Both the position numbers and the translations under genes were made by a program. The notes under the pieces were generated by a model. That model did not search any database. It was not told the DNA's origin and saw nothing but the letters and a program-made list of their open reading frames with translations. Positions 396 to 30,960 of a stretch of DNA of 32,000 bases are shown here, in pieces. This DNA comes from Telmatocola sphagniphila (GTDB lineage: Bacteria > Planctomycetota > Planctomycetia > Gemmatales > Gemmataceae): the NCBI RefSeq assembly GCF_018398935.1, contig NZ_CP074694.1, forward strand, positions 3,840,001 through 3,872,000. The letters are read 5' to 3'. Every line of letters starts with the position of its first letter. Within the stretch, counting starts at the first letter, position 1.

Positions 396-510
396 CCCCC
401 AATCAAGCCAATCAAAGCTCTTTTCCCCCGACTATGTCGGACCCGAGAAAAGTTATTCATCGAAATGCCCTTTAGGGCAAAGATTAGGGGGTGTGGATAT
501 CCGTGGAAAT

Positions 511-876: not shown

Positions 877-1079
877 GGTTACCTATCCCCGATTCATTCG
901 TAGGAAGCGTTAACGCGAAACTGCCAATGGAATGTTTTATAGCATATCACACCTCGCTTGGAAAAAGCAAAATTCAACTCAATTCGAACTTCACTCTGAC
1001 AAGCCCTTATCCGCTTGCCTCCTCGCCCCCTCCCAACGACAATTGCCTTATCGCCCGCACTTGAAGGAGTCTTCGAACT

Positions 1080-1937: not shown

Positions 1938-1966
1938 GTGAAATGAATCTGTTTAAAGTCTTAAAC

Positions 1967-1992
1967 TGAGACCGTGTACAAATGCGGTCTCA
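1967..1992. terminator. hairpin between convergent genes (weak terminator candidate)
   Basis: TGAGACCG (1967-1974) pairs with CGGTCTCA (1985-1992) around a 10-nt loop. It lies just after the hydrolase stop codon. There is no U-tract. Confidence 0.25.
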
Positions 1993-2430
1993 CTCCTCCT
2001 GAGGATCGTGGCAATCCAGGCCAAACTCCTCTGCGATGGAACGTAGATAGGCGACGAATTCCGCAGCGTGCGATGGAGTAAATTGGGCGATCGACCTCAC
2101 CGGTTTTAGGTTGAGGAATCTCAGCAAATGATCCGTTGCAGATCGGTAACGATTGATCGTATTGATCGTATTGATCGAGGATCGGGAAATCTGTTCGTGA
2201 TGTTCGAGCGATTGCTGTCAGGCTTTTTCGATCGAGATACTTTCAAAGCTCAACTCGGCGGGTGTTCCGACATCCAACTGCGAGTTGATTTGCGAAGCGA
2301 GTGGGCGGGCGGCATTCCGGTCCGGACCGACCCGAGGGCGGTGCCGTCGCCCTTGTTCGTTGTAACAGAGATACCAAATTTTGCCGCGACGATACCCTCG
2401 AACTTTACCAATGCGGAACTCATTCGACAT
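1990..2430 (-). pseudogene. tyrosine recombinase/phage integrase, N-terminal fragment with in-frame stop
   Basis: Minus-strand translation gives MSNEFRIGKVRGYRRGKIWYLCYNEQGRRHRPRVGPDRNAARPLASQINSQL..., an arm-binding-type integrase N-terminus. It hits an in-frame TGA at 2218-2220, then continues as ..RYRSATDHLLRFLNLKPVRSIAQFTPSHAAEFVAYLRS.. (SAM-like domain). It ends at 1990 with no catalytic domain. Confidence 0.6.
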
Positions 2431-2808
2431 GCGTGCCTCAGAGATTTCTCCCGCCACAAAACGCCCCAAAAACCGCCACAAATGGGATTTTTTGAAGACA
2501 CTTCAAAAACGTAAGTTATTATTGGATATTGACTTACGTCAACCAAAGAAATGAAAATACGGAGAGGGGGGGAGACTCTGAGCCGATTTTTTCATTTCCG
2601 TCCGTTTGTTGCAACTGATTGAATAATAACGAGTTATAGCGATATGTCAAGAGCCGATAAAACCTGAAAATCGCCATTCTCGAGGTACAAAACGCCACAA
2701 AAACGCCACAAATATTTGTCTAAATTTTCGCTATTCAGATTCGCGTAAAATATCGAGCGTTTCCCTTCAGCTCCTGGAAGACCCAGAGATCGGTTTGTAG
2801 GTAATAAC

Positions 2809-3139
2809 TCACGCCCTGGCCAAGAGAGAAGGGGCTTTCTCTTTGGCAAAGTGAGCTTGGACGGCTTGAGTCATCCAGGCGAATGAATTCCGTCTCTGCT
2901 GTCGACAGGTTTCGATCACGGTCAGCATTCGTTCAACGAACCGACTCCCTTGAGCCGATTGGGTTCCAAAGCATAACTTCCGCCAAATGACCGCGGGCCG
3001 CAAAGCCCGCTCGGCGGCATTATTGGTGGGCTCTACTCCTTCGACATCGACGAACGTCCAAAGCCGAGCCCGGTATTACCAGAGTTCGGAGCAAAAGCCA
3101 CGCAGCTTCGGATCGAATTATCCTCGCAAGAGCAAGGGG
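2809..3139 (-). pseudogene. IS66-like transposase C-terminal remnant, cut by transposon end
   Basis: Minus-strand frame gives ..FVDVEGVEPTNNAAERALRPAVIWRKLCFGTQSAQGSRFVERMLTVIETCRQQRRN... This matches the TNNxAERxLR...RK...G pattern of IS66-type C-termini. Two in-frame stops lie upstream. Homology ends exactly at the TGT terminus at 3140. Confidence 0.5.
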
Positions 3140-3304
3140 TGTCCTTTACCGCGGTTTGATCGCACTTTGGAATTCGAATCGCCGAATAGTTATTGAATTG
3201 CCAGTCGTCGATTACGCTGCGAATTTGGTAAGGGAATTGACCTGTTAAGTCGGTTTTTCCCCGCCGTCTTTGATCGGTGATAAATCGTACCTCGCTCCTA
3301 CCCC
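3140..3304 (+). mobile_element. 165-bp left-end fragment of the four-gene transposon, interrupted by copy 1
   Basis: Starts TGTCCTTTACCGCGGTTTGATCGCAC and matches the first ~165 bp of the element. It is the CGAATCGCC / CGATTACG variant also seen in copy 2. It is broken where the TGT of copy 1 begins at 3305. Confidence 0.85.
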
Positions 3305-3339
3305 TGTCCTTTACCGCGGTTTGATCGCACTTTGGAATT
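3305..3339 (+). repeat. left terminal inverted repeat (copy 1)
   Basis: TGTCCTTTACCGCGGTTTGATCGCACTTTGGAATT aligns with the reverse complement of the right end, TGTCCCGAACCGAATTCTGGTCGCATTTGTAGCCG. Shared positions follow TGTCC...ACCG...T.TG.TCGCA.TT. Confidence 0.75.
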
Positions 3340-3517
3340 AGAATAGCCGAATAGTTATTGAATTGCCAGTCGTCGCTTACGCTGCGAATTTGGTAAGGGA
3401 ATTGACTTGTTAAGTCGGTTTTTCCCCGCCGTCTTTGATCGGTGATAAATCGTACCTCGCTCTACCCCGCCTCGTGTCTGTACAATTTTCCTTTTCCATT
3501 TTGCTGAGGCTCACTCC

Positions 3518-4078
3518 TTGGGCGAGGTGCGGTTTTACCGCAGCGAGGAGGAATGGAGTTCGATCGCTGAACGGCTCAAACAGACCCACTGTCCGCACTG
3601 CAAAGTGGTCGGCACGCTGATTCAGCACGGCTTTTTGTTCGGCTATGACGAACGCAACCCCCAGCGAAGAGCCCGGCGTGCCCGGCGGATCTTCTGCAGC
3701 AATCGCAATTCCCGTCGCGGTTGCGGGCGGACTTTCAGCATCTGGCTCGCCGACAAAATCCGACGCTTGAGCCTTACCAGCAGCACTTTGTGGCGCTTCC
3801 TCCAACTCGCCGTATTTGGCAGTATCGCCGCATCAATCCGTGCCATCGACTGTCATCTGAGCGACCGAACCTTGCAGCGGATTTGGAAACGCTTCGATCT
3901 GAGCCAATGCCCGATTCGGACGGCCCTGTTGAATCAGCGTCCACCTCCAGAACTCGTAGTTGAACGCTCGCGTTGGCCGGCTCGGGCCCAAGTACTCGCC
4001 CATCTTCAAACCGCCTTTCCCGACGCCGATTGTCCGATCGCCGCCTTCCAACAGGCAATCCAGATTTTCTTCCTGTAA
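3518..4078 (+). CDS. transposon zinc-ribbon protein (186 aa), function unknown
   Basis: The ORF is conserved in every copy. It has a non-ATG start (TTG 3518 or GTG 3527) with GAGG upstream. The CPHC...x31...CSNRNSRRGCGRTFS motif followed by a helical region resembles the IS1595-type transposase Zn-ribbon layout by eye. Confidence 0.65.
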   Translation: MGEVRFYRSEEEWSSIAERLKQTHCPHCKVVGTLIQHGFLFGYDERNPQRRARRARRIFCSNRNSRRGCGRTFSIWLADKIRRLSLTSSTLWRFLQLAVFGSIAASIRAIDCHLSDRTLQRIWKRFDLSQCPIRTALLNQRPPPELVVERSRWPARAQVLAHLQTAFPDADCPIAAFQQAIQIFFL

Positions 4079-4311
4079 ATCTGACCCGATGCATAAAAGC
4101 CGATAACCGTTGACATATTTGCGTCGCATACACGTCGATTACCAACCCCGGTTACCCAATTCGGATCGCGCTACGTCGCCGCCGGCGCGCTCCCCAAATT
4201 CAAAAATAGCCGACAACGCATGATGTCGTAGTGACTCTCTTTGGTTTTTGATTCAATCTCCCGAGTCTGGCACCGCCCTGCCAGCACTTTCCCCAATCCG
4301 GAGAACTCTCC

Positions 4312-5553
4312 ATGAAGCAACCTTCGGTCTATTTGAAGATGCGGGTCCTCGGTGCTGTCGACACCGTCGAAGGGCGAACCCGGCATGAACGCGTTCACAA
4401 TGTCGCCGCCATGACCTTCCTCGACGAACAGGGCAACTCGCGTCAGTTCACCTGGCGGACCATTCAGACCTGGTTCTACCGTTACAAAAACCACGGCATC
4501 ACCGGTATGACTCCTCAGCCACGCAAGGACAAGGGACAAGTCCGCAAGGCCACGCCCGAGGAACTGCTCGAAGCCATTAACGCCGCCCAGCCCCACTTCC
4601 ACAACAAACGCTCCAACAAGCGAGCGATCTATCGCTTCTGTATCGAACGGGGGTTCCTGCAAGCCGACCGCATTGCTCAAACCACTTTTTACCGCTTCAT
4701 CCGAGAATACGATCTGCTCGCTCCCGTAGACAACGACAACAAGAAACGACTGGCCTTCAGCATGAAATTCGCCAACCAACTCTGGCAGGCGGACACCATG
4801 TTCGGACCATACGTGGACACCGGTACGTCCGCCGGCTCACGCAAGCAAGCCAAGCTCATCGCCTTCATCGACGACGCCAGCCGCGTCCTCTGCCACGGCG
4901 AATTCTTCTTCGAAGAAAACGTCGATACCCTCGTGCAGGCCATCCGGGCCGCCTTCTACAAACGCGGCGTCCCCGAACAACTGCTGGTCGACAACGGTTC
5001 CATCTATTGCTCCCAGGAGTTTACACTCATCTGTGCCCGCGTCGGCTGCCTCTTGCGACATACCGCTGTCCGGGATGCCGCCGCCAAGGGGAAGATCGAA
5101 CGCTTTTTCCGCCGCGTTCGCGACCAGTTCCTCTTGCAAAAACTCGACCTTTCTTCCCTTCAAGCCCTCAATCGCCAGTTCACTCTCTGGGTCGAAAGCG
5201 ACTACAACGCCAGCGAGCACGACGCCATCGGCATGAAACCGATCGACCGCTTCGGCATCGACTTGGCTCGCATTCGATTCTTGTCGCCTTCCGAACACAA
5301 CGACGAACTCTTCTTCGCCGAGGCCACCCGGAAAGTCAAAAAAGACAATACCTTTAGCTTCTGCAACCGACGTTACGAAACTCCCGTCGATCTGCACGAC
5401 AAACAAATCCAACTCCGCTACGACCGACAACGCGATGACATCGACATCTCCTCTACCACCGTCGTCATTTATTACAAAGGCCAACGCATGGGCACCGCTC
5501 GACTCCTGGATGCCGTTGCCAACGGGCTCCAACGCCGAAAGGAACAGCCATGA
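4312..5553 (+). CDS. DDE (rve/integrase-core) transposase, TniA/TnsB/MuA-like
   Basis: 413 aa with an N-terminal HTH-like region. The DDE triad context is LWQADTMFGPY, LLVDNGSIY, KGKIERFF. The stop overlaps the next gene's start (ATGA at 5550-5553). Confidence 0.9.
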   Translation: MKQPSVYLKMRVLGAVDTVEGRTRHERVHNVAAMTFLDEQGNSRQFTWRTIQTWFYRYKNHGITGMTPQPRKDKGQVRKATPEELLEAINAAQPHFHNKRSNKRAIYRFCIERGFLQADRIAQTTFYRFIREYDLLAPVDNDNKKRLAFSMKFANQLWQADTMFGPYVDTGTSAGSRKQAKLIAFIDDASRVLCHGEFFFEENVDTLVQAIRAAFYKRGVPEQLLVDNGSIYCSQEFTLICARVGCLLRHTAVRDAAAKGKIERFFRRVRDQFLLQKLDLSSLQALNRQFTLWVESDYNASEHDAIGMKPIDRFGIDLARIRFLSPSEHNDELFFAEATRKVKKDNTFSFCNRRYETPVDLHDKQIQLRYDRQRDDIDISSTTVVIYYKGQRMGTARLLDAVANGLQRRKEQP

Positions 5554-6350
5554 TCCGCTCCTTCTTCGGACTCTCGCACAATCCCTTCGACGCACGCGAA
5601 TTCAAACTCCTGCCGCAGCAGCAAGAAATTCACGACACCCTCAAGGTCCATTGCCAGCAGGGTGGACTCTGCCTGGTTCTCGGCGTTCCCGGCACCGGCA
5701 AGAGCTTCATCAAGCAATCCCTTCAGCGGCTTCCCGAAAACCAGCACCTGGTCGCCACCGTGGGCCGCACCTTGCACACCTATACCAACTCCGTCAAAAT
5801 ACTCTGCGATGCCTTCCGCATCGACTTCGAAAGCTCTGCCTTCAAGTGCGAACGCCGACTCATCGAACAAGCCTTCAGCCTCAACCATGCGGGCAAGTCG
5901 GTCACCACCATTCTCGACGACGCTCACCTCATGGATATGGCCTGTCTGCGAAAGTTGCGGCTGCTCTTCGAAGACTTCCCCAAAAACCACAACCTCATCC
6001 TCATCGGCCAACCCAGCCTGCTCGCCAACCTCGACCTCGGCGTCAACCAGGACATCAAAAGCCGAGTCACTTACTCCGTCATCGCCAAACGGCTCGGACC
6101 CGATTTACTGCGCGACTTCCTTCTCCGGGAACTCGATCGCATCGGACTCGGCCACAATACTTTTACGCAACCCGCCGTCGATCTCATCGTCCGCGCCGCC
6201 GACGGCATCCTGCGTAAAGCCCGCAATCTCTGCGTCGGCTGCCTCATCGAAGCCGTTCGATCCGCCAATAAAACCGTGGACATCGACAACGTCAACCGCG
6301 TCCTCCTGCAACCCCACTGGCAAAAAGAATCCGACCTCGCCGATTACTGA
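5550..6350 (+). CDS. AAA+ ATPase, TniB/ExeA(AAA_22)-like transposition helper
   Basis: 266 aa with N-terminus FFGLSHNPF (ExeA/TniB style). Walker A is GVPGTGKS and Walker B is TTILDDAHLM. It is translationally coupled to the transposase gene. Confidence 0.85.
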   Translation: MIRSFFGLSHNPFDAREFKLLPQQQEIHDTLKVHCQQGGLCLVLGVPGTGKSFIKQSLQRLPENQHLVATVGRTLHTYTNSVKILCDAFRIDFESSAFKCERRLIEQAFSLNHAGKSVTTILDDAHLMDMACLRKLRLLFEDFPKNHNLILIGQPSLLANLDLGVNQDIKSRVTYSVIAKRLGPDLLRDFLLRELDRIGLGHNTFTQPAVDLIVRAADGILRKARNLCVGCLIEAVRSANKTVDIDNVNRVLLQPHWQKESDLADY

Positions 6351-6376
6351 TTCTCAGCGCCCCCGTCGGAGAAACG

Positions 6377-6682
6377 ATGATCCAACCCGATCTACTACGC
6401 CGCATTCGCAACGATTTGCCCATGCCCGTCACCATCGCCACGCTGGGAACCGATGGGCCACCTTCGAAAATGAGCGAAGGCTACTTCCGCTTCCTCTGCC
6501 CCAACTGCGGCGAAATGCGGGCTACCGTCAACCCACGCAACAACCTCGCCCACTGCTTCGACTGCCAAAAAAACTTCAACAACATCGACCTCTTGCTCAC
6601 CCTCGATTACGACTTCCTCACCGCCGTCGATTTACTCGAACGCTGGCTCAACGAATATCGAACCCGACAAGCCAAAAAGTAA
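6377..6682 (+). CDS. small CHC2 (DnaG-primase-type) zinc-finger protein
   Basis: 101 aa. CPNCGEMRATVNPRNNLAHCFDCQKNFNNIDLLL parallels the DnaG zinc-binding motif CPFHxEKTPSFxV...HCFGCGxxGNxIDFLM. Confidence 0.7.
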   Translation: MIQPDLLRRIRNDLPMPVTIATLGTDGPPSKMSEGYFRFLCPNCGEMRATVNPRNNLAHCFDCQKNFNNIDLLLTLDYDFLTAVDLLERWLNEYRTRQAKK

Positions 6683-6861
6683 TCAGTCGCAGGAAGCCCG
6701 TTACTCTACGAACCTCTGCTGCTCGCGGCGAACGGCAGCGCCTCGTGCCGGACTACGCCGGCCCATCGCAACACCCCGGTCTCGGTCATCAGACCGCTCC
6801 AATATTCCCCGGTATTCGGCAAAACACCCTTCAAAATGCCAAAATCCCTACAGCTTTAATT

Positions 6862-6896
6862 CGGCTACAAATGCGACCAGAATTCGGTTCGGGACA
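6862..6896 (+). repeat. right terminal inverted repeat (copy 1)
   Basis: CGGCTACAAATGCGACCAGAATTCGGTTCGGGACA. The subterminal ATTCGG motif recurs at 6824, 6859 and 6882. Confidence 0.75.
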
Positions 6897-6897
6897 C

Positions 6898-7629
6898 CTG
6901 ATTCGGACGGGCCCGCTCGAAGGACCGCACCTTGTCCGGATGCCCTCGCGTCGGAGCCTGCTCCAGTTGATAACCGGCTTCATGCAGCACCCGGGCCACC
7001 GCCGAAGCACTCGCCGGTAAAGCCGGACCTCGCAATAGCATGTCGCTAATCCGCTGACACCCCCATTCCGGATTCGATTTTTTGAGCATCAGGATTGTAC
7101 GCTTGGTCAACTCGTGAACGCGGCTGCCCGGAGGTTTGCCCCGCGGCTGATCCAACAATCCGGCCGGGCCAGAAATTTCAAACCGCTTCTTCCATGCGTA
7201 AAGCGTGTGTTTCGAGACGCCTACCAAAGGAGCAAAATCGCCGGCGGGCAAGCCGCTCCGCTGCCAGGTATCCAGCAACAAAATCCGCTGTTCCGCCGTC
7301 ATCGCCGGCACGGGTTCGGTCGATTTTTTCACCAAACGCCGTCCCTTAACAGGTCCCCGACCCGATAACCTCGAGTGGAATTCCCTACGCTTCGAAAGGC
7401 TGGCTTCTACCTCGGAATCCACGGAATCCGATAAATCCAGACCCGCATCGGGAAAGGACTCCGAAGTGGGGCGGGCTCCGCGTCGCTCCCCTTCGCTGCG
7501 CTCAGGGGCGCTCGGCTCCGCCCGCCCCACTTCGGCAGCCGCGGACTGCGGGTCCCTATCCTCCGTCGGACCAGCTCTCGGTTGTTCTTCTCTTTTCTCC
7601 GCAAATGCATTCTGGTTGAATTCATCCAT
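6898..7629 (-). pseudogene. IS481-like transposase, N-terminal half (split gene, part 1)
   Basis: Minus-strand ORF with HTH regions (HTLYAWKKRFEISGPAGLLDQPRG..., NPEWGCQRISDMLL). It ends ...SFERARPNQ exactly at the ACA terminus of copy 1. It continues at 12466 on the other strand. Confidence 0.8.
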
Positions 7630-8866: not shown

Positions 8867-9081
8867 ATGTCCCGAACCGAATTCTGGTCGCATTTGTAGC
8901 CGAATTAAAGCTGTAGGGATTTTGGCATTTTGAAGGGTGTTTTGCCGAATTCCAGGGAATTTTGGAGCGGTCTGATGACCGAGACCGGGGTGTTGCGATG
9001 GGCCGGCGTAGTCCGGCACGAGGCGCTGCCGTTCGCCGCGAGCAGCAGAGGTTCGTAGAGGAACGGGCTTCCTGCGACTGA

Positions 9082-9387
9082 TTACTTTTTGGCTTGTCGG
9101 GTTCGATATTCGTTGAGCCAGCGTTCGAGTAAATCGACGGCGGTGAGGAAGTCGTAATCGAGGGTGAGCAAGAGGTCGATGTTGTTGAAGTTTTTTTGGC
9201 AGTCGAAGCAGTGGGCGAGGTTGTTGCGTGGGTTGACGGTAGCCCGCATTTCGCCGCAGTTGGGGCAGAGGAAGCGGAAGTAGCCTTCGCTCATTTTCGA
9301 AGGTGGCCCATCGGTTCCCAGCGTGGCGATGGTGACGGGCATGGGCAAATCGTTGCGAATGCGGCGTAGTAGATCGGGTTGGATCAT
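9082..9387 (-). CDS. CHC2 zinc-finger protein (copy 2)
   Basis: Translation identical to 6377-6682. Confidence 0.7.
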   Translation of the reverse strand: MIQPDLLRRIRNDLPMPVTIATLGTDGPPSKMSEGYFRFLCPNCGEMRATVNPRNNLAHCFDCQKNFNNIDLLLTLDYDFLTAVDLLERWLNEYRTRQAKK

Positions 9388-9413
9388 CGTTTCTCCGACG
9401 GGGGCGCTGAGAA

Positions 9414-10214
9414 TCAGTAATCGGCGAGGTCGGATTCTTTTTGCCAGTGGGGTTGCAGGAGGACGCGGTTGACGTTGTCGATGTCCACGGTTTTATTGGC
9501 GGATCGAACGGCTTCGATGAGGCAGCCGACGCAGAGATTGCGGGCTTTACGCAGGATGCCGTCGGCGGCGCGGACGATGAGATCGACGGCGGGTTGCGTA
9601 AAAGTATTGTGGCCGAGTCCGATGCGATCGAGTTCCCGGAGAAGGAAGTCGCGCAGTAAATCGGGTCCGAGCCGTTTGGCGATGACGGAGTAAGTGACTC
9701 GGCTTTTGATGTCCTGGTTGACGCCGAGGTCGAGGTTGGCGAGCAGGCTGGGTTGGCCGATGAGGATGAGGTTGTGGTTTTTGGGGAAGTCTTCGAAGAG
9801 CAGCCGCAACTTTCGCAGACAGGCCATATCCATGAGGTGAGCGTCGTCGAGAATGGTGGTGACCGACTTGCCCGCATGGTTGAGGCTGAAGGCTTGTTCG
9901 ATGAGTCGGCGTTCGCACTTGAAGGCAGAGCTTTCGAAGTCGATGCGGAAGGCATCGCAGAGTATTTTGACGGAGTTGGTATAGGTGTGCAAGGTGCGGC
10001 CCACGGTGGCGACCAGGTGCTGGTTTTCGGGAAGCCGCTGAAGGGATTGCTTGATGAAGCTCTTGCCGGTGCCGGGAACGCCGAGAACCAGGCAGAGTCC
10101 ACCCTGCTGGCAATGGACCTTGAGGGTGTCGTGAATTTCTTGCTGCTGCGGCAGGAGTTTGAATTCGCGTGCGTCGAAGGGATTGTGCGAGAGTCCGAAG
10201 AAGGAGCGGATCAT
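9414..10214 (-). CDS. TniB/ExeA-like AAA+ ATPase (copy 2)
   Basis: Translation identical to 5550-6350. Confidence 0.85.
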   Translation of the reverse strand: MIRSFFGLSHNPFDAREFKLLPQQQEIHDTLKVHCQQGGLCLVLGVPGTGKSFIKQSLQRLPENQHLVATVGRTLHTYTNSVKILCDAFRIDFESSAFKCERRLIEQAFSLNHAGKSVTTILDDAHLMDMACLRKLRLLFEDFPKNHNLILIGQPSLLANLDLGVNQDIKSRVTYSVIAKRLGPDLLRDFLLRELDRIGLGHNTFTQPAVDLIVRAADGILRKARNLCVGCLIEAVRSANKTVDIDNVNRVLLQPHWQKESDLADY

Positions 10215-11452
10215 GGCTGTTCCTTTCGGCGTTGGAGCCCGTTGGCAACGGCATCCAGGAGTCGAGCGGTGCCCATGCGTTGGCCTTTGTAATAAATGAC
10301 GACGGTGGTAGAGGAGATGTCGATGTCATCGCGTTGTCGGTCGTAGCGGAGTTGGATTTGTTTGTCGTGCAGATCGACGGGAGTTTCGTAACGTCGGTTG
10401 CAGAAGCTAAAGGTATTGTCTTTTTTGACTTTCCGGGTGGCCTCGGCGAAGAAGAGTTCGTCGTTGTGTTCGGAAGGCGACAAGAATCGAATGCGAGCCA
10501 AGTCGATGCCGAAGCGGTCGATCGGTTTCATGCCGATGGCGTCGTGCTCGCTGGCGTTGTAGTCGCTTTCGACCCAGAGAGTGAACTGGCGATTGAGGGC
10601 TTGAAGGGAAGAAAGGTCGAGTTTTTGCAAGAGGAACTGGTCGCGAACGCGGCGGAAAAAGCGTTCGATCTTCCCCTTGGCGGCGGCATCCCGGACAGCG
10701 GTATGTCGCAAGAGGCAGCCGACGCGGGCACAGATGAGTGTAAACTCCTGGGAGCAATAGATGGAACCGTTGTCGACCAGCAGTTGTTCGGGGACGCCGC
10801 GTTTGTAGAAGGCGGCCCGGATGGCCTGCACGAGGGTATCGACGTTTTCTTCGAAGAAGAATTCGCCGTGGCAGAGGACGCGGCTGGCGTCGTCGATGAA
10901 GGCGATGAGCTTGGCTTGCTTGCGTGAGCCGGCGGACGTACCGGTGTCCACGTATGGTCCGAACATGGTGTCCGCCTGCCAGAGTTGGTTGGCGAATTTC
11001 ATGCTGAAGGCCAGTCGTTTCTTGTTGTCGTTGTCTACGGGAGCGAGCAGATCGTATTCTCGGATGAAGCGGTAAAAAGTGGTTTGAGCAATGCGGTCGG
11101 CTTGCAGGAACCCCCGTTCGATACAGAAGCGATAGATCGCTCGCTTGTTGGAGCGTTTGTTGTGGAAGTGGGGCTGGGCGGCGTTAATGGCTTCGAGCAG
11201 TTCCTCGGGCGTGGCCTTGCGGACTTGTCCCTTGTCCTTGCGTGGCTGAGGAGTCATACCGGTGATGCCGTGGTTTTTGTAACGGTAGAACCAGGTCTGA
11301 ATGGTCCGCCAGGTGAACTGACGCGAGTTGCCCTGTTCGTCGAGGAAGGTCATGGCGGCGACATTGTGAACGCGTTCATGCCGGGTTCGCCCTTCGACGG
11401 TGTCGACAGCACCGAGGACCCGCATCTTCAAATAGACCGAAGGTTGCTTCAT
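10211..11452 (-). CDS. DDE (rve) transposase (copy 2)
   Basis: Translation identical to 4312-5553. Confidence 0.9.
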   Translation of the reverse strand: MKQPSVYLKMRVLGAVDTVEGRTRHERVHNVAAMTFLDEQGNSRQFTWRTIQTWFYRYKNHGITGMTPQPRKDKGQVRKATPEELLEAINAAQPHFHNKRSNKRAIYRFCIERGFLQADRIAQTTFYRFIREYDLLAPVDNDNKKRLAFSMKFANQLWQADTMFGPYVDTGTSAGSRKQAKLIAFIDDASRVLCHGEFFFEENVDTLVQAIRAAFYKRGVPEQLLVDNGSIYCSQEFTLICARVGCLLRHTAVRDAAAKGKIERFFRRVRDQFLLQKLDLSSLQALNRQFTLWVESDYNASEHDAIGMKPIDRFGIDLARIRFLSPSEHNDELFFAEATRKVKKDNTFSFCNRRYETPVDLHDKQIQLRYDRQRDDIDISSTTVVIYYKGQRMGTARLLDAVANGLQRRKEQP

Positions 11453-11685
11453 GGAGAGTTCTCCGGATTGGGGAAAGTGCTGGCAGGGCGGTGCCAGACT
11501 CGGGAGATTGAATCAAAAACCAAAGAGAGTCACTACGACATCATGCGTTGTCGGCTATTTTTGAATTTGGGGAGCGCGCCGGCGGCGACGTAGCGCGATC
11601 CGAATTGGGTAACCGGGGTTGGTAATCGACGTGTATGCGACGCAAATATGTCAACGGTTATCGGCTTTTATGCATCGGGTCAGAT

Positions 11686-12246
11686 TTACAGGAAGAAAAT
11701 CTGGATTGCCTGTTGGAAGGCGGCGATCGGACAATCGGCGTCGGGAAAGGCGGTTTGAAGATGGGCGAGTACTTGGGCCCGAGCCGGCCAACGCGAGCGT
11801 TCAACTACGAGTTCTGGAGGTGGACGCTGATTCAACAGGGCCGTCCGAATCGGGCATTGGCTCAGATCGAAGCGTTTCCAAATCCGCTGCAAGGTTCGGT
11901 CGCTCAGATGACAGTCGATGGCACGGATTGATGCGGCGATACTGCCAAATACGGCGAGTTGGAGGAAGCGCCACAAAGTGCTGCTGGTAAGGCTCAAGCG
12001 TCGGATTTTGTCGGCGAGCCAGATGCTGAAAGTCCGCCCGCAACCCCGACGGGAATTGCGATTGCTGCAGAAGATCCGCCGGGCACGCCGGGCTCTTCGC
12101 TGGGGGTTGCGTTCGTCATAGCCGAACAAAGAGCCGTGCTGAATCAGCGTGCCGACCACTTTGCAGTGCGGACAGTGGGTCTGTTTGAGCCGTTCAGCGA
12201 TCGAACTCCATTCCTCCTCGCTGCGGTAAAACCGCACCTCGCCCAA
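11686..12246 (-). CDS. transposon zinc-ribbon protein (copy 2)
   Basis: Same as 3518-4078 except for one substitution (HGFLFGY to HGSLFGY). Confidence 0.65.
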   Translation of the reverse strand: MGEVRFYRSEEEWSSIAERLKQTHCPHCKVVGTLIQHGSLFGYDERNPQRRARRARRIFCSNRNSRRGCGRTFSIWLADKIRRLSLTSSTLWRFLQLAVFGSIAASIRAIDCHLSDRTLQRIWKRFDLSQCPIRTALLNQRPPPELVVERSRWPARAQVLAHLQTAFPDADCPIAAFQQAIQIFFL

Positions 12247-12465
12247 GGAGTGAGCCTCAGCAAAATGGAAAAGGAAAATTGTACAGACACGAGGCGGGGT
12301 AGAGCGAGGTACGATTTATCACCGATCAAAGACGGCGGGGAAAAACCGACTTAACATTAACAAGTCAATTCCCTTACCAAATTCGCAGCGTAATCGACGA
12401 CTGGCAATTCAATAACTATTCGGCGATTCGAATTCCAAAGTGCGATCAAACCGCGGTAAAGGACA

Positions 12466-13133
12466 AATCAGTTATGGCAAACTGATCTTTTCACATTTGT
12501 GTTAAAACGTCAGAATCGGCGCGTTCATTTGGTCGGGTTCATGGACGATCACAGTCGGTTTTTGGTCGGCTACGGCTTGCATGCGAGCCAGTCATCGGCT
12601 TTGGTGCTGGAGGTCTTGCGAGCTTCCATGGCTTCTTATGGAACGCCGGAGGAGATTCTCACCGACAACGGTACGCAGTATGTGACCTGGCGGGGTAAAA
12701 GTGCCTTCTCGAAGGAACTCGAAAAACGGGGCATTCGACAGGTAGTAGCGTCTCCGCGTCATCCGCAGACTTTGGGTAAGATCGAGCGGTTCTGGGGAAC
12801 CTTGTGGCGTGAGTGCATCGAGAGTGCAATCTTCATCGACATGGGGGATGCTCAGCGTCGGATTGGGTTATTCATAGACCATTACAACTTCCAGAGGCCC
12901 CATCAGGGGATCGATGGTCTGGTGCCCGCGGACCGTTACTTCGGGGCGGCCTCGGAAGTGCGTCGGAGTCTTCAAACTCGGGTAGCCGCGAATGCCTTGG
13001 AGCTGGCTCGAAACGGGATTCCGAAGCAGCCGTTTTATCTGACCGGCCAGGTGGGAGGTCAGCCCTTCAGCGTCCATGCGGAAGGGGAACGGATGATCTT
13101 GACCCGGCCCGAAGGAGAACGGCGGGAGATAGA
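12466..13133 (+). pseudogene. IS481-like transposase, catalytic C-terminal part (split gene, part 2)
   Basis: The frame starts NQLWQTDLFTFVLKRQNRRVHLVGFMDDHSRF... directly at the copy 2 left terminus. rve motifs are present (ILTDNGTQY, LGKIERFW, YNFQRPHQGI). The 3' end is cut by the TGT terminus at 13134. Confidence 0.8.
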
Positions 13134-13564
13134 TGTCCTTTACCGCGGTTTGATCGCACTTTGGAATTAGAATAGCCGAATAGTTATTGAATTGCCAGTC
13201 GTCGCTTACGCTGCGAATTTGGTAAGGGAATTGACCTGTTAAGTCGGTTTTTCCCCGCCGTCTTTGATCGGTGATAAATCGTACCTCGCTCTACCCCGCC
13301 TCGTGTCTGTACAATTTTCCTTTTCCATTTTGCTGAGGCTCACTCCTTGGGTGTCCTTTACCGCGGTTTGATCGCACTTTGGAATTAGAATAGCCGAATA
13401 GTTATTGAATTGCCAGTCGTCGCTTACGCTGCGAATTTGGTAAGGGAATTGACTTGTTAAGTCGGTTTTTCCCCGCCGTCTTTGATCGGTGATAAATCGT
13501 ACCTCGCTCTACCCCGCCTCGTGTCTGTACAATTTTCCTTTTCCATTTTGCTGAGGCTCACTCC

Positions 13565-14125
13565 TTGGGCGAGGTGCGGTTTTACCGCAGCGAGGAGGAA
13601 TGGAGTTCGATCGCTGAACGGCTCAAACAGACCCACTGTCCGCACTGCAAAGTGGTCGGCACGCTGATTCAGCACGGCTTTTTGTTCGGCTATGACGAAC
13701 GCAACCCCCAGCGAAGAGCCCGGCGTGCCCGGCGGATCTTCTGCAGCAATCGCAATTCCCGTCGCGGTTGCGGGCGGACTTTCAGCATCTGGCTCGCCGA
13801 CAAAATCCGACGCTTGAGCCTTACCAGCAGCACTTTGTGGCGCTTCCTCCAACTCGCCGTATTTGGCAGTATCGCCGCATCAATCCGTGCCATCGACTGT
13901 CATCTGAGCGACCGAACCTTGCAGCGGATTTGGAAACGCTTCGATCTGAGCCAATGCCCGATTCGGACGGCCCTGTTGAATCAGCGTCCACCTCCAGAAC
14001 TCGTAGTTGAACGCTCGCGTTGGCCGGCTCGGGCCCAAGTACTCGCCCATCTTCAAACCGCCTTTCCCGACGCCGATTGTCCGATCGCCGCCTTCCAACA
14101 GGCAATCCAGATTTTCTTCCTGTAA
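13565..14125 (+). CDS. transposon zinc-ribbon protein (copy 3)
   Basis: Translation identical to 3518-4078. Confidence 0.65.
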   Translation: MGEVRFYRSEEEWSSIAERLKQTHCPHCKVVGTLIQHGFLFGYDERNPQRRARRARRIFCSNRNSRRGCGRTFSIWLADKIRRLSLTSSTLWRFLQLAVFGSIAASIRAIDCHLSDRTLQRIWKRFDLSQCPIRTALLNQRPPPELVVERSRWPARAQVLAHLQTAFPDADCPIAAFQQAIQIFFL

Positions 14126-14358
14126 ATCTGACCCGATGCATAAAAGCCGATAACCGTTGACATATTTGCGTCGCATACACGTCGATTACCAACCCCGGTT
14201 ACCCAATTCGGATCGCGCTACGTCGCCGCCGGCGCGCTCCCCAAATTCAAAAATAGCCGACAACGCATGATGTCGTAGTGACTCTCTTTGGTTTTTGATT
14301 CAATCTCCCGAGTCTGGCACCGCCCTGCCAGCACTTTCCCCAATCCGGAGAACTCTCC

Positions 14359-15600
14359 ATGAAGCAACCTTCGGTCTATTTGAAGATGCGGGTCCTCGGT
14401 GCTGTCGACACCGTCGAAGGGCGAACCCGGCATGAACGCGTTCACAATGTCGCCGCCATGACCTTCCTCGACGAACAGGGCAACTCGCGTCAGTTCACCT
14501 GGCGGACCATTCAGACCTGGTTCTACCGTTACAAAAACCACGGCATCACCGGTATGACTCCTCAGCCACGCAAGGACAAGGGACAAGTCCGCAAGGCCAC
14601 GCCCGAGGAACTGCTCGAAGCCATTAACGCCGCCCAGCCCCACTTCCACAACAAACGCTCCAACAAGCGAGCGATCTATCGCTTCTGTATCGAACGGGGG
14701 TTCCTGCAAGCCGACCGCATTGCTCAAACCACTTTTTACCGCTTCATCCGAGAATACGATCTGCTCGCTCCCGTAGACAACGACAACAAGAAACGACTGG
14801 CCTTCAGCATGAAATTCGCCAACCAACTCTGGCAGGCGGACACCATGTTCGGACCATACGTGGACACCGGTACGTCCGCCGGCTCACGCAAGCAAGCCAA
14901 GCTCATCGCCTTCATCGACGACGCCAGCCGCGTCCTCTGCCACGGCGAATTCTTCTTCGAAGAAAACGTCGATACCCTCGTGCAGGCCATCCGGGCCGCC
15001 TTCTACAAACGCGGCGTCCCCGAACAACTGCTGGTCGACAACGGTTCCATCTATTGCTCCCAGGAGTTTACACTCATCTGTGCCCGCGTCGGCTGCCTCT
15101 TGCGACATACCGCTGTCCGGGATGCCGCCGCCAAGGGGAAGATCGAACGCTTTTTCCGCCGCGTTCGCGACCAGTTCCTCTTGCAAAAACTCGACCTTTC
15201 TTCCCTTCAAGCCCTCAATCGCCAGTTCACTCTCTGGGTCGAAAGCGACTACAACGCCAGCGAGCACGACGCCATCGGCATGAAACCGATCGACCGCTTC
15301 GGCATCGACTTGGCTCGCATTCGATTCTTGTCGCCTTCCGAACACAACGACGAACTCTTCTTCGCCGAGGCCACCCGGAAAGTCAAAAAAGACAATACCT
15401 TTAGCTTCTGCAACCGACGTTACGAAACTCCCGTCGATCTGCACGACAAACAAATCCAACTCCGCTACGACCGACAACGCGATGACATCGACATCTCCTC
15501 TACCACCGTCGTCATTTATTACAAAGGCCAACGCATGGGCACCGCTCGACTCCTGGATGCCGTTGCCAACGGGCTCCAACGCCGAAAGGAACAGCCATGA
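14359..15600 (+). CDS. DDE (rve) transposase (copy 3)
   Basis: Translation identical to 4312-5553. Confidence 0.9.
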   Translation: MKQPSVYLKMRVLGAVDTVEGRTRHERVHNVAAMTFLDEQGNSRQFTWRTIQTWFYRYKNHGITGMTPQPRKDKGQVRKATPEELLEAINAAQPHFHNKRSNKRAIYRFCIERGFLQADRIAQTTFYRFIREYDLLAPVDNDNKKRLAFSMKFANQLWQADTMFGPYVDTGTSAGSRKQAKLIAFIDDASRVLCHGEFFFEENVDTLVQAIRAAFYKRGVPEQLLVDNGSIYCSQEFTLICARVGCLLRHTAVRDAAAKGKIERFFRRVRDQFLLQKLDLSSLQALNRQFTLWVESDYNASEHDAIGMKPIDRFGIDLARIRFLSPSEHNDELFFAEATRKVKKDNTFSFCNRRYETPVDLHDKQIQLRYDRQRDDIDISSTTVVIYYKGQRMGTARLLDAVANGLQRRKEQP

Positions 15601-16397
15601 TCCGCTCCTTCTTCGGACTCTCGCACAATCCCTTCGACGCACGCGAATTCAAACTCCTGCCGCAGCAGCAAGAAATTCACGACACCCTCAAGGTCCATTG
15701 CCAGCAGGGTGGACTCTGCCTGGTTCTCGGCGTTCCCGGCACCGGCAAGAGCTTCATCAAGCAATCCCTTCAGCGGCTTCCCGAAAACCAGCACCTGGTC
15801 GCCACCGTGGGCCGCACCTTGCACACCTATACCAACTCCGTCAAAATACTCTGCGATGCCTTCCGCATCGACTTCGAAAGCTCTGCCTTCAAGTGCGAAC
15901 GCCGACTCATCGAACAAGCCTTCAGCCTCAACCATGCGGGCAAGTCGGTCACCACCATTCTCGACGACGCTCACCTCATGGATATGGCCTGTCTGCGAAA
16001 GTTGCGGCTGCTCTTCGAAGACTTCCCCAAAAACCACAACCTCATCCTCATCGGCCAACCCAGCCTGCTCGCCAACCTCGACCTCGGCGTCAACCAGGAC
16101 ATCAAAAGCCGAGTCACTTACTCCGTCATCGCCAAACGGCTCGGACCCGATTTACTGCGCGACTTCCTTCTCCGGGAACTCGATCGCATCGGACTCGGCC
16201 ACAATACTTTTACGCAACCCGCCGTCGATCTCATCGTCCGCGCCGCCGACGGCATCCTGCGTAAAGCCCGCAATCTCTGCGTCGGCTGCCTCATCGAAGC
16301 CGTTCGATCCGCCAATAAAACCGTGGACATCGACAACGTCAACCGCGTCCTCCTGCAACCCCACTGGCAAAAAGAATCCGACCTCGCCGATTACTGA
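15597..16397 (+). CDS. TniB/ExeA-like AAA+ ATPase (copy 3)
   Basis: Translation identical to 5550-6350. Confidence 0.85.
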   Translation: MIRSFFGLSHNPFDAREFKLLPQQQEIHDTLKVHCQQGGLCLVLGVPGTGKSFIKQSLQRLPENQHLVATVGRTLHTYTNSVKILCDAFRIDFESSAFKCERRLIEQAFSLNHAGKSVTTILDDAHLMDMACLRKLRLLFEDFPKNHNLILIGQPSLLANLDLGVNQDIKSRVTYSVIAKRLGPDLLRDFLLRELDRIGLGHNTFTQPAVDLIVRAADGILRKARNLCVGCLIEAVRSANKTVDIDNVNRVLLQPHWQKESDLADY

Positions 16398-16423
16398 TTC
16401 TCAGCGCCCCCGTCGGAGAAACG

Positions 16424-16729
16424 ATGATCCAACCCGATCTACTACGCCGCATTCGCAACGATTTGCCCATGCCCGTCACCATCGCCACGCTGGGAACCGA
16501 TGGGCCACCTTCGAAAATGAGCGAAGGCTACTTCCGCTTCCTCTGCCCCAACTGCGGCGAAATGCGGGCTACCGTCAACCCACGCAACAACCTCGCCCAC
16601 TGCTTCGACTGCCAAAAAAACTTCAACAACATCGACCTCTTGCTCACCCTCGATTACGACTTCCTCACCGCCGTCGATTTACTCGAACGCTGGCTCAACG
16701 AATATCGAACCCGACAAGCCAAAAAGTAA
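16424..16729 (+). CDS. CHC2 zinc-finger protein (copy 3)
   Basis: Translation identical to 6377-6682. Confidence 0.7.
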   Translation: MIQPDLLRRIRNDLPMPVTIATLGTDGPPSKMSEGYFRFLCPNCGEMRATVNPRNNLAHCFDCQKNFNNIDLLLTLDYDFLTAVDLLERWLNEYRTRQAKK

Positions 16730-16944
16730 TCAGTCGCAGGAAGCCCGTTACTCTACGAACCTCTGCTGCTCGCGGCGAACGGCAGCGCCTCGTGCCGGAC
16801 TACGCCGGCCCATCGCAACACCCCGGTCTCGGTCATCAGACCGCTCCAATATTCCCCGGTATTCGGCAAAACACCCTTCAAAATGCCAAAATCCCTACAG
16901 CTTTAATTCGGCTACAAATGCGACCAGAATTCGGTTCGGGACAC

Positions 16945-17505
16945 TTGGGCGAGGTGCGGTTTTACCGCAGCGAGGAGGAATGGAGTTCGATCGCTGAACG
17001 GCTCAAACAGACCCACTGTCCGCACTGCAAAGTGGTCGGCACGCTGATTCAGCACGGCTTTTTGTTCGGCTATGACGAACGCAACCCCCAGCGAAGAGCC
17101 CGGCGTGCCCGGCGGATCTTCTGCAGCAATCGCAATTCCCGTCGCGGTTGCGGGCGGACTTTCAGCATCTGGCTCGCCGACAAAATCCGACGCTTGAGCC
17201 TTACCAGCAGCACTTTGTGGCGCTTCCTCCAACTCGCCGTATTTGGCAGTATCGCCGCATCAATCCGTGCCATCGACTGTCATCTGAGCGACCGAACCTT
17301 GCAGCGGATTTGGAAACGCTTCGATCTGAGCCAATGCCCGATTCGGACGGCCCTGTTGAATCAGCGTCCACCTCCAGAACTCGTAGTTGAACGCTCGCGT
17401 TGGCCGGCTCGGGCCCAAGTACTCGCCCATCTTCAAACCGCCTTTCCCGACGCCGATTGTCCGATCGCCGCCTTCCAACAGGCAATCCAGATTTTCTTCC
17501 TATAA
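16945..17505 (+). CDS. transposon zinc-ribbon protein (host copy 4)
   Basis: Same 186-aa sequence. Its TTG start lies inside the duplicated CTTGGG immediately after the copy 3 right terminus. Confidence 0.55.
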   Translation: MGEVRFYRSEEEWSSIAERLKQTHCPHCKVVGTLIQHGFLFGYDERNPQRRARRARRIFCSNRNSRRGCGRTFSIWLADKIRRLSLTSSTLWRFLQLAVFGSIAASIRAIDCHLSDRTLQRIWKRFDLSQCPIRTALLNQRPPPELVVERSRWPARAQVLAHLQTAFPDADCPIAAFQQAIQIFFL

Positions 17506-17738
17506 ATCTGACCCGATGCATAAAAGCCGATAACCGTTGACATATTTGCGTCGCATACACGTCGATTACCAACCCCGGTTACCCAATTCGGATCGCGCTA
17601 CGTCGCCGCCGGCGCGTTCCCCAAATTCAAAAATAGCCGACAACGCATGATGTCGTAGTGACTCTCTTTGGTTTTTGATTCAATCTCCCGAGTCTGGCAC
17701 CGCCATGCCAGCACTTTCCCCAATCCGGAGAACTCTCC

Positions 17739-18157
17739 ATGAAGCAACCTTCGGTCTATTTGAAGATGCGGGTCCTCGGTGCTGTCGACACCGTCGAAGG
17801 GCGAACCCGGCATGAACGCGTTCACAATGTGGCCGCCATGACCTTCCTCGACGAACAGGGCAACTCGCGTCAGTTCACCTGGCGGACCATTCAGACCTGG
17901 TTCTACCGTTACAAAAACCACGGCATCACCGGTATGACTCCTCAGCCACGCAAGGACAAGGGACAAGTCCGCAAGGCCACGCCCGAGGAACTGCTCGAAG
18001 CCATTAACGCCGCCCAGCCCCACTTCCACAACAAACGCTCCAACAAGCGAGCGATCTATCGCTTCTGTATCGAACGGGGGTTCCTGCAAGCCGACCGCAT
18101 TGCTCAAACCACTTTTTACCGCTTCATCCGAGAATACGATCTGCTCGCTCCCGTAGA
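17739..18157 (+). pseudogene. DDE transposase, 5' fragment (host copy 4)
   Basis: The first ~139 codons are identical to the 413-aa transposase. The fragment is broken at ...LLAPVD by the TGT terminus of the mini-element. Confidence 0.85.
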
Positions 18158-18679
18158 TGTCCTTTACCGCGGTTTGATCGCACTTAGGAATTAGAATAGC
18201 CGAATAGTTATTGAATTGCCAGTCGTCGCTTACGCTGCGAATTTGGTAAAGGAATTGACTTGTTAAGTCGGTTTTTCCCCGCCGTCTTTGATCGGTGATA
18301 AAACGTACCTCGCTCCTACCCCGCCTCGGGTCTGTACAATTTTCCTTTTCCATTTTGCTGAGGCTTACTCCTTGGGCGAGGTGCGGTTTTACCGCAGCGA
18401 GGAGGAATGGAGTTCGATCGCTGAACGGCTCAAACAGACCCACTGTCCGCACTGCAAAGTGGTCGGCACGCTGATTCAGCACGGCTTTTTGTTCGGCTAT
18501 GACGAACGCAACCCCCAGAGCCTCGTGCCGGACTACACCGGCCCATCGCAACACCCCGGTCTCGGTCATCAGACTGCTCAAAAAATTCCCTGGAATTCGG
18601 CAAAAACACCCTTCAAAATGCAAAAAATCCATACAGCTTTAATTCGGCTACAAATGCGACCAGAATTCGGTTCGGGACA
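18158..18679 (+). mobile_element. 522-bp internally deleted (MITE-like) derivative of the four-gene transposon
   Basis: An intact TGT left end plus ~361 bp is joined at 18518/18519 to the last ~161 bp, including the GGGACA terminus. It has no complete gene. It carries more substitutions than the full copies. Confidence 0.8.
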
Positions 18680-19110
18680 CCTCGCCCACTGCTTCGACTG
18701 CCAAAAAAACTTCAACAACATCGACCTCTTGCTCACCCTCGATTACGACTTCCTCACCGCCGTCGATTTACTCGAACGCTGGCTCAACGAATATCAAACC
18801 CGACAAGCCAAAAAGTAATTAGTCGCAGGAAGCCCGTTCCTCTACGAACCTCTGCTGTTCACGGCGAACGGCAGCACCTCGCGCCGGACTACGCCGGCCC
18901 ATCGCAACACCCCGGTCTCGGCCATCAGACCGCTCCAAAATTCCCTGGAATTCGGCAAAACACCCTTCAAAATGCCAAAATCCCTACAGCTTTAATTCGG
19001 CTACAAATGCGACCAGAATTCGGTTCGGGACATCTAAGCGGGATAGGGCGCTTTAGTTCGCGTCCATAGCGGTGTGCGACTGCGACTCTTTTCGAACGGA
19101 GAAATCCCTC

Positions 19111-20497: not shown

Positions 20498-20994
20498 TCA
20501 CGTAATATTTGCCGTTTTTTGCGATTTAATTACTAGAGGAATTGGCCCTCTCTTGAACAAAAGATCGCCGTGATCGACGAGAGCACGGCGTAAAGCAATT
20601 CGATCGATACGGCGAGCTTCCTGCTCGAGCAACACTCCCGAAGGAGATTTTCCTTCCTCCTCCATAGCTCGGTTCCGATGGATTTCAACAAGCTCTCGGA
20701 ACTGATCGCGAGATTCTGTCGCGACTCTCTCCCGACTTTTCCAAAGCGCCTCGGGAGTAGGACCCAGACCTCCTCTCGGTCGAGCCAAGGCATTGGCTTC
20801 CCGTCGAGCCGCCTCCACATCCTCAGCGTTCCACACTTCCGGATGGCCTTCCCAGGCAGCTCTACGTTCGATTCGACTTTTCAAAGATCCTATGCCCGCT
20901 TCGATCGCACCGTTATATTGTGGCCTCCTCGGCGGAGAGTACAAGCCGAACACGCCTTCTCGCTGCAAAAATTCTTGGACCACTTCGGCAATAA
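20498..20994 (-). pseudogene. DDE/rve transposase C-terminal fragment (5' truncated)
   Basis: ..SPFIAEVVQEFLQREGVFGLYSPPRRPQYNGAIEAGIGSLK.. shows the third acidic residue context of the rve fold. The upstream part is replaced by a transposon right-end fragment at about 20995. Confidence 0.6.
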
Positions 20995-21165
20995 ACGGAG
21001 AACGGCAGCGCCTCGTGCCGGACTACGCCGGCCCCTCGCAACACCCCGGTCTCGGTCATCAGGCCGCTCCAAAATTCCCCGGTATTCGGCAAAACACCCT
21101 TCAAAATACCAAAATCCCTACAGCTTTAATTCGGCTACAAATGCGACCAGAATTCGGTTCGGGAT
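20995..21165 (+). mobile_element. right-end fragment of the four-gene transposon with damaged tip
   Basis: Matches the last ~170 bp of the element (GAACGGCAGCGCCTCGTGCCGG...AATTCGGTTCGGGA). It ends GGGAT instead of GGGACA and is fused to internal ATPase-gene sequence. Confidence 0.75.
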
Positions 21166-21649
21166 AACAAGCCTTCAGCCTCAACCATGCGGGCAAGTCG
21201 GTCACCACCATTCTCGACGACGCTCACCTCATGGATATGGCCTGTCTGCGAAAGTTGCGGCTGCTCTTCGAAGACTTCCCCAAAAACCACAACCTCATCC
21301 TCATCGGCCAACCCAGCCTGCTCGCCAACCTCGACCTCGGCGTCAACCAGGACATCAAAAGCCGAGTCACTTACTCCGTCATCGCCAAACGGCTCGGACC
21401 CGATTTACTGCGCGACTTCCTTCTCCGGGAACTCGATCGCATCGGACTCGGCCACAATACTTTTACGCAACCCGCCGTCGATCTCATCGTCCGCGCCGCC
21501 GACGGCATCCTGCGTAAAGCCCGCAATCTCTGCGTCGGCTGCCTCATCGAAGCCGTTCGATCCGCCAATAAAACCGTGGACATCGACAACGTCAACCGCG
21601 TCCTCCTGCAACCCCACTGGCAAAAGAATCCGACCTCGCCGATTACTGA
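21166..21649 (+). pseudogene. TniB/ExeA-like ATPase, 3' fragment with frameshift
   Basis: Lacks the first ~105 codons including Walker A. A 1-bp deletion in the A-run near 21620 (CAAAAGAATCC versus CAAAAAGAATCC) shifts the frame. Confidence 0.8.
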
Positions 21650-21675
21650 TTCTCAGCGCCCCCGTCGGAGAAACG

Positions 21676-21981
21676 ATGATCCAACCCGATCTACTACGCC
21701 GCATTCGCAACGATTTGCCCATGCCCGTCACCATCGCCACGCTGGGAGCCGATGGGCCACCTTCGAAAATGAGCGAAGGTTACTTCCGCTTCCTCTGCCC
21801 CAACTGCGGCGAAATGCGGGCTACCGTCAACCCACGCAACAACCTCGCCCACTGCTTCGACTGCCAAAAAAACTTCAACAACATCGACCTCTTGCTCACC
21901 CTCGATTACGACTTCCTCACCGCCGTCGATTTACTCGAACGCTGGCTCAACGAATATCAAACCCGACAAGCCAAAAAGTAA
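21676..21981 (+). CDS. CHC2 zinc-finger protein (truncated copy; intact ORF with two substitutions)
   Basis: 101 codons, MIQPDLLRRIRNDL...EYQTRQAKK. It differs from copy 1 at T to A (LGADG) and R to Q. Confidence 0.5.
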   Translation: MIQPDLLRRIRNDLPMPVTIATLGADGPPSKMSEGYFRFLCPNCGEMRATVNPRNNLAHCFDCQKNFNNIDLLLTLDYDFLTAVDLLERWLNEYQTRQAKK

Positions 21982-22195
21982 TCAGTCGCAGGAAGCCCGT
22001 TCCTCTACGAACCTCTGCTGCTCGCGGCGAACGGCAGCGCCTCGTGGCCGACTACGCCGGCCCATCGCAACACCCCGGTCTCGGTCATCAGACCGCTCCA
22101 AAATTCCCTGGAATTCGGCAAAACACCCTTCAAAATGCCAAAATCCATACAGCTTTAATTCGGCTACAAATGCGACCAGAATTCGGTTCGGGACA

Positions 22196-22860: not shown

Positions 22861-30960
<8,100 letters not shown>

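Follow-up and report, generated by a model that had tools for sequence, protein, structure and literature searches.

A nested self-insertion with a 6-bp duplication in Telmatocola sphagniphila: a distant relative of Tn552 and the question of target immunity

Target immunity is a hallmark of the best-studied mobile elements that combine a transposase with an ATPase. We describe a 3.6-kb element of this design from the planctomycete Telmatocola sphagniphila, and the insertion of one complete copy (copy 3) into the left end of a sibling (copy 4). Both lie in a window of 32,000 nucleotides (assembly GCF_018398935.1, contig NZ_CP074694.1, positions 3,840,001 to 3,872,000, forward strand); positions below are those of the window, unless an element position or another locus is named. 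The element is a four-gene transposon, so far uncharacterised, whose closest studied relative is Tn552. Tn552 is reported to generate target duplications of 6 bp and to land inside or next to other transposons (PMC3276174).

Tn6022, a Tn7-like transposon of Acinetobacter, occurs in genomes as internal and proximal self-insertions that suggest absent immunity, and yet assays reveal immunity of 50-fold to more than 10^6-fold (PMC11014353). A single nested copy therefore cannot prove that immunity is absent. The insertion sequences (IS) IS30, IS911 and IS26 prefer a sibling copy as target, IS30 with strict orientation specificity (PMC9333248, PMC7986276).

Anatomy of the nest and its duplication

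Host copy 4 is broken off at element position 218 and picks up at position 213; the overlap is the hexamer CTTGGG, which abuts copy 3 on both sides (Table 1). With copy 3 and one of the two copies of positions 213-218 taken out, the host reads through. The chance of a random 6-bp flank match is 1/4096, and a host that continues so exactly leaves very little room for chance or mis-assembly. Copy 3 in copy 4 is a genuine transposition: a simple insertion with a 6-bp stagger. An earlier note on this DNA, made from the letters alone, had proposed a full copy inside copy 4 at position 218, flanked by this repeat. BLAST of the 3592-bp reference unit (13352-16943) against the window and the exact host continuity bear out both statements. 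The same note had placed the TTG start of the host's 186-aa gene (gene 1) within the duplication. In an alignment of eleven left ends, this TTG falls in the column of the ATG or GTG starts of ten relatives; the duplication thus contains the gene 1 start codon, as proposed.

The insert is younger than its host, since copy 3 is 100% identical to copy 1, located 10,047 bp upstream, while host copy 4 differs from copy 3 at 5 of 1432 positions. In terms of spacing, the insertion point lies 218 bp from the left end of copy 4, in agreement with the estimate of about 200 bp in the earlier note. The left end of copy 2 is now about 0.9 kb away; it belongs to an inversion between copies 1 and 2 (see below), so its earlier position may have differed. 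The proximity of sibling ends did not block the insertion of copy 3.

Genes, ends and relation to known elements

All four genes are co-oriented (Table 1). The transposase scores 52 bits against the Pfam domain rve and 24.5 bits against Mu-transpos_C (cut-off 21.7). Its best NCBIfam score is to the IS481 model (transpos_IS481; 157.5 bits, below the cut-off of 224), and it reaches 58 bits against the IS21 IstA model (cut-off 160). A search of the PDB with the transposase yields a weak match to IS5376 IstA (E 5e-4); across the element proteins, sequence and profile searches of the PDB give weak IstA and ORC1 matches at most, or none. Homologues of the ATPase are annotated in their sources as ExeA or MshM. 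The window proteins have no match to TniB, TniQ or TnsA in Pfam even at E<=5, family searches matched them to no TnsC, MuB or IstB model, and a domain search detected no recombinase domain in any of the four open reading frames (ORFs). AlphaFold 2 models of the ATPase and gene 1 are poor (predicted local distance difference test, pLDDT, 54).

The non-coding left end contains conserved blocks in the same eleven-sequence alignment: the terminus at 1-28, TTGCCGAATT at 40-49 and GAATTTGGCAAA at 83-94, with the terminal core TACCCCGC repeated at about 120-170. GCCGAAT motifs are present in the right end. The left-end blocks appear to follow the multi-site plan of Tn7/Tn552-class ends (PMC8649781) and are putative transposase-binding repeats. 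A right end reading ...ACAC with a 5-bp duplication was considered, prompted by the C or T that follows GGGACA at all six right ends; it was dropped, since loci L004, L050 and L176 (L numbers denote loci outside the window) show unambiguous 6-bp duplications with ...ACA ends.

The transposase matches p480 of Tn552 at 24% identity over 71% of the query (tblastn, E 3e-10), and the matched gene adjoins blaZ-blaR1-blaI-bin in a staphylococcal plasmid. p480 is the only characterised relative detected, and at this level of sequence identity the kinship appears distant. The two elements share a DDE transposase of the rve type with a Mu-transposase C-terminal domain, homologous between them. In both, the next gene encodes an ATPase of about 270 aa (p271 in Tn552, 266 aa here), possible counterparts by size and position; p271 is truncated in the staphylococcal record examined. 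A further likeness is the 6-bp duplication: CTTGGG in the window and in L004, CCTTGC in L050 and GCTTCC in L176. The window element, by contrast, lacks a resolvase, a res site and cargo, and has two additional small zinc-ribbon genes; its terminal inverted repeat is about 25 nt with scattered subterminal motifs, compared with about 120 bp in Tn552; and its family occurs in Planctomycetota and many other phyla, whereas Tn552 is from Staphylococcus.

Other elements are related in design. Tn7, Tn5053 and Mu share the TGT...ACA termini, the pairing of a DDE transposase with an AAA+ regulator and the repeated subterminal motifs, but they duplicate 5 bp instead of 6, and the window element has no match to the TnsA, TniQ, TnsC/TniB or MuB families. 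IS21 has the same two-protein plan of DDE transposase and AAA+ protein (IstA and IstB); here the IstA score falls below its cut-off and there is no IstB_IS21 domain. IS481 is a single-gene IS whose family cut-off is likewise not reached, as opposed to four genes here. IR-targeting by IS30, targeted conservative integration by IS26 and targeted transposition by IS911 join elements end to end without a duplication, whereas the clean case here lies inside its sibling and has the usual 6-bp duplication. Finally, Tn6022 shows comparable self-insertions in genomes, but it is a different system, with strong measured immunity.

These comparisons bear on the premise of the earlier note, that immunity is to be expected as in Mu, Tn7 and Tn3. 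The element is none of these, and the expectation rests on analogy, given 24% identity to p480 and no match to a Tn7, TniB, TniQ or IstB model. Tn3, for its part, has no ATPase.

Self-junctions and target choice in the family and the window

The family is large. More than 4600 transposase homologues were found, many of them 85-88% identical and located on metagenomic contigs of 2-4 kb, a size typical of collapsed repeats; relatives at about 85% identity number in the thousands in soil and freshwater metagenomes. Genome matches are mostly from Planctomycetota (Gemmataceae, Gemmatales, Pirellulales, Limnoglobus), with more distant copies in many other phyla. In a 48%-identical relative on the Undibacterium plasmid NZ_AP018440.1 (L062, 3270-6237), transposase and ATPase are fused into one protein of 686 aa and the same flanking small genes are retained. 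Scans of genome and metagenome contigs for the exact left end gave no match, and look-ups of the exact proteins returned a collapsed 3.1-kb Logan contig at most, or nothing.

The mapping of termini covered 60 genome loci, 80 metagenome loci and 6 others. Wherever a duplication is intact, it measures 6 bp; L177 adds one of about ACCAAC to the three hexamers above. About two of three copies keep their duplication in a three-copy genome, and duplications are mostly lost in a Gemmataceae metagenome-assembled genome (MAG) with at least 13 copies; this contrast fits a shuffling of flanks by recombination among copies. A logo of 134 non-redundant left flanks, from the window and the fetched loci, gives the target consensus nYTAGn (T 66% at -4, A 57% at -3, Y at -5, G at -2), which implies a palindromic core within the 6-bp duplication. 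CTTGGG matches it in part only. Within the window, TAGA stands before three ends (8868, 13134, 18158) and TTAGA before a fourth (19032). TAGA was considered as an extension of the inverted repeat and rejected: at 18158 it is host sequence, and the logo reveals it as a target preference. Other ISs are also hit: an IS66 element of the three-copy genome contains one copy (L176), and a second copy (L175) lies about 330 nt beyond the end of an intact IS66 of the same kind.

Junctions of element DNA with element DNA recur outside the window: L006 has four, L018 and L048 have three each, and L008, L015, L053 and L178 also contain them, as do 5-6 of 76 metagenomic left flanks. Over other genomes and metagenomes, self DNA adjoins about 7-10% of left ends, and for outer right ends the figure is about 30%; the element's share of these genomes is estimated at below 1% (an example being 13 copies of 3.8 kb in a MAG whose listed contigs sum to 4.2 Mb). 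Siblings lie 20-250 bp apart in L005, L089 and L110, and right-end fragments accumulate beside full copies. Unlike the products of IS30, IS26 and IS911, no abutted end-to-end junctions were seen among these self-junctions. Frequent, co-oriented landing in siblings is supported family-wide.

When the junctions of the window and the other genomes are converted to window-element coordinates, the host positions are 132, 164, 218, 558, 919, 1426, 1658, 2271 (inverted), 2292, 2298, 2497, 2563, 2771, 3083, 3224, 3234, 3240, 3252, 3278, 3302, 3356, 3361 and 3470. These positions, about 24 in number, spread across the whole element, denser toward the right end, and are not gathered in the leader. The nest in L004 (6931-10693) has the same CTTGGG duplication, inverted, at the start of the sibling's ATPase gene, so the hexamer does not define a leader-specific site. 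The earlier note had offered homing of the element to its own leader as one explanation; given the scatter, the rightward skew and the use of CTTGGG at another position and in inverted orientation, it is not supported. Three independent nests (L004; L048 at 9271; L066/L114) fall within 27 bp at the ATPase gene start (2271-2298), and four further nests within 28 bp at 3224-3252, each cluster involving three genomes. Both groupings suggest hot spots, but by a scan-statistic estimate neither is significant after allowing for the right-side enrichment.

In the Gemmataceae MAG CAVVFU01, every copy of one subfamily (L003, L006, L007, L009, L014-L016, L018, L023, L050, L051) has, 104-105 bp inside its true right end, a degenerate second one that reads TGG, TGC or CGT in place of TGT. 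This second end resembles the fossil of a nested insertion, by now carried along when the element transposes. Of the 35 loci with non-element flanks of 8 kb or more, 27 have a negative flank GC skew when the element is set on the + strand, a pattern suggestive of biased orientation with respect to replication or to adjacent genes. In two contigs of 5.8 Mb, the first half has reversed copies and the second half forward ones.

The window itself holds at least five self-junctions, several element fragments and a second IS family, IS-X (Table 1). IS-X is interrupted twice by element insertions; an rve ORF (12499-13170) extends into the left end of copy 4, which sits in the 3' part of the IS-X transposase gene. 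AATCAG is present at both IS-X break points, with one extra C at 6897. The separated halves and the shared AATCAG indicate that copies 1 and 2 are related by inversion of the intervening segment. Inverted copies may have undergone homologous recombination, or the inversion may have been replicative. Inverted repeats of IS-X were searched for and not found. The left flank of copy 4 was also paired with the right end at 19032, and no duplication was found there. The 522-bp internally deleted derivative resembles a miniature inverted-repeat transposable element, and its two parts meet at a short microhomology, CAG(C/A)G. Derivatives of this left-plus-right kind are also present in L008 (1598-3876) and L179/L180. 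The whole cluster adjoins an RHS-repeat gene, in which long CCNGTN (Gly-Thr-type) repeat tracts run at about 27900-29550. Elsewhere, the element has large RHS/YD-repeat genes as neighbours in at least four loci (L175, L178, L179, L180).

Table 1. Features of the window, with two regions of the three-copy genome
Feature	Position	Strand	Description
Solo left-end fragment	3140-3304	+	Element positions 1-164, 97%; copy 1 starts directly after
Self-junction	3304/3305		Left fragment, then full copy 1
Copy 1, complete	3305-6896	+	Element positions 1-3592; 100% identical to copy 3
IS-X transposase, N-terminal half	6897-7629	-	HTH_32; ends at copy 1 right end
Copy 2, complete, inverted	8868-12465	-	Full length, 99.6% identical
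IS-X transposase, C-terminal half	12466-13133	+	rve; starts at copy 2 left end; cut again by copy 4 at 13134
Host copy 4, left part	13134-13351	+	BLAST: element positions 1-218, 1 mismatch
CTTGGG duplication, left copy	13346-13351	+	Abuts TGTCC... of copy 3
Self-junctions	13351/13352 and 16943/16944		Clean nest
Copy 3, complete	13352-16943	+	Element positions 1-3592; reference unit; ends TGTCC...GGACA; four genes
Gene 1, 186 aa	13565-14125	+	Zinc-ribbon-like CxxC...C..C; TTG start; matches no family
Transposase, 413 aa	14359-15600	+	HTH_32 + rve + Mu-transpos_C
AAA+ ATPase, 266 aa	15597-16397	+	AAA_22, ExeA/MshM-like; overlaps transposase stop codon
Gene 4, 101 aa	16424-16729	+	Weak CHC2/zinc-ribbon similarity
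CTTGGG duplication, right copy	16944-16949	+	Abuts ...GGGACA of copy 3; includes TTG start of host gene 1
Host copy 4, resumed	16944-18157	+	BLAST: element positions 213-1426, 4 mismatches
Self-junction	18157/18158		Host position 1426 meets 522-bp derivative
522-bp internally deleted derivative	18158-18679	+	Element positions 1-360 (18158-18518) and 3432-3592 (18516-18679); abuts host position 1426
Right-end fragment	18680-19032	+	Element positions 3240-3592, 96.9% (BLAST: 18679 to 19032 = 3239-3592); may or may not be host copy 4's own right end
Self-junction	18679/18680		Right end meets position 3240
Stack of two right-end fragments	20982-22195	+	Element positions about 3408-3590, then 2562-3592 (BLAST: 20996-21164 = 3422-3590; 21166-22195 = 2562-3592)
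Self-junction	21165/21166		Right end meets position 2562
RHS-repeat gene, 2699 aa	22861-30960	-	Adjoins the cluster
Region with a copy inside IS66, L176	8608-10000		Three-copy genome
Region with a copy past IS66, L175	3313-5027		Three-copy genome

Immunity, targeting or passive accumulation

The structure is an ordinary nested insertion in an IS graveyard. We favor, with a probability of roughly 0.6, the recent insertion of a Tn552-like transposon whose family lacks effective cis-immunity, hops locally, accumulates passively and is trimmed by recombination. In this sequence of events, copy 3 inserted into the leader and gene 1 start codon of an older sibling, the staggered 6-bp cut yielding the CTTGGG duplication, with the identical copy 1 as the probable donor or a sister copy. 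Local hopping in a family without effective cis-immunity is the most likely mechanism. Insertion prefers the loose nYTAGn hexamer, and insertions would survive chiefly where the DNA is dispensable, as in copies of other ISs. Homologous recombination within a co-oriented nest would then trim it: an exchange of its left arms would leave a full copy and a right fragment, and an exchange of its right arms a left fragment and a full copy. Short fragments would persist longest, which would account for the terminal bias. Self-integration by the same copy, considered as a one-step source of fragment stacks, was rejected on topology: it would break the chromosome.

Several observations weigh against this explanation. 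Outside the window, 16-19 self-junctions are co-oriented and 1-2 are inverted (L004, possibly L080; binomial p about 3e-4 to 1e-3), more than passive accumulation predicts. Right-end fragments outnumber left-end fragments by about 3:1, an excess not predicted by uniform insertion plus recombination. Trimming leaves both the right excess and the strong co-orientation unaccounted for. A global orientation bias is estimated to cover part of the co-orientation only: with about 77% of copies in one orientation, co-orientation would be expected in about 65% of nests, compared with at least 90% observed. Furthermore, the enrichment of self-insertion over chance is itself an estimate.

The same co-orientation speaks for the opposite of immunity, an active and orientation-specific targeting in which existing copies serve as preferred landing pads. 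Here a sibling-bound element protein would recruit the ATPase-transposase complex in the same orientation; the binder might be a zinc-ribbon protein, or the transposase seated on the subterminal repeats, with polar nucleation of the AAA+ ATPase. Further points in its favor are the frequency of self DNA at left and right ends relative to the genome share of the element, the terminal-core repeats (TACCCCGC, GCCGAAT) at positions 40-170, a stretch that includes the junctions at 132 and 164, and the existence of a whole subfamily with a fossil second right end. Nonetheless, the host positions range widely, from 132 to 3470, the two clusters fall short of significance given the right-side enrichment, other IS families are also struck, one clean nest (L004) is inverted, and survivorship after recombination would by itself favor short terminal fragments. 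On balance, we consider targeting rather unlikely. Immunity of the Mu/Tn7 type with this insertion as a rare, harmless escape is less probable again. The coexistence of nests and strong immunity in Tn6022 makes such an escape conceivable, and the AAA+ ATPase and multi-site ends are compatible with it; self-junctions and closely spaced siblings, however, recur in many unrelated genomes, and no TnsC, TniB or MuB family match was obtained. An assembly artefact or a rearrangement other than transposition is very improbable: the region is highly repetitive, with identical 3.6-kb copies, but exact termini, an exact 6-bp duplication and a continuous host are unlike mis-joins or unequal crossovers, and an independent MAG (L004) has a structure of the same kind under the same 6-bp rule.

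The interpretation in the earlier note is thus supported in part. The nest in the window is no proof that immunity is absent, as Tn6022 illustrates; the family-wide data fit weak or no cis-immunity. Effective cis-immunity appears unlikely in this family because nests and close neighbors are frequent throughout it.

A single nested event adds little by itself; co-oriented self-nesting at the level of the family is modestly interesting and testable. Nests, stacks of end fragments and lost duplications explain assembly breaks in such regions, and all three mark recombination-prone zones beside RHS toxin loci. How far target immunity reaches across elements that pair a transposase with an ATPase is a question on which this family bears: abundant, and readily self-nesting in a co-directional manner, it would provide a natural contrast case for AAA+ regulators that repel or attract insertion near sibling ends. 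Oriented sibling targeting, if true, would build the co-oriented nests and the end-fragment stacks of Planctomycetota genomes.

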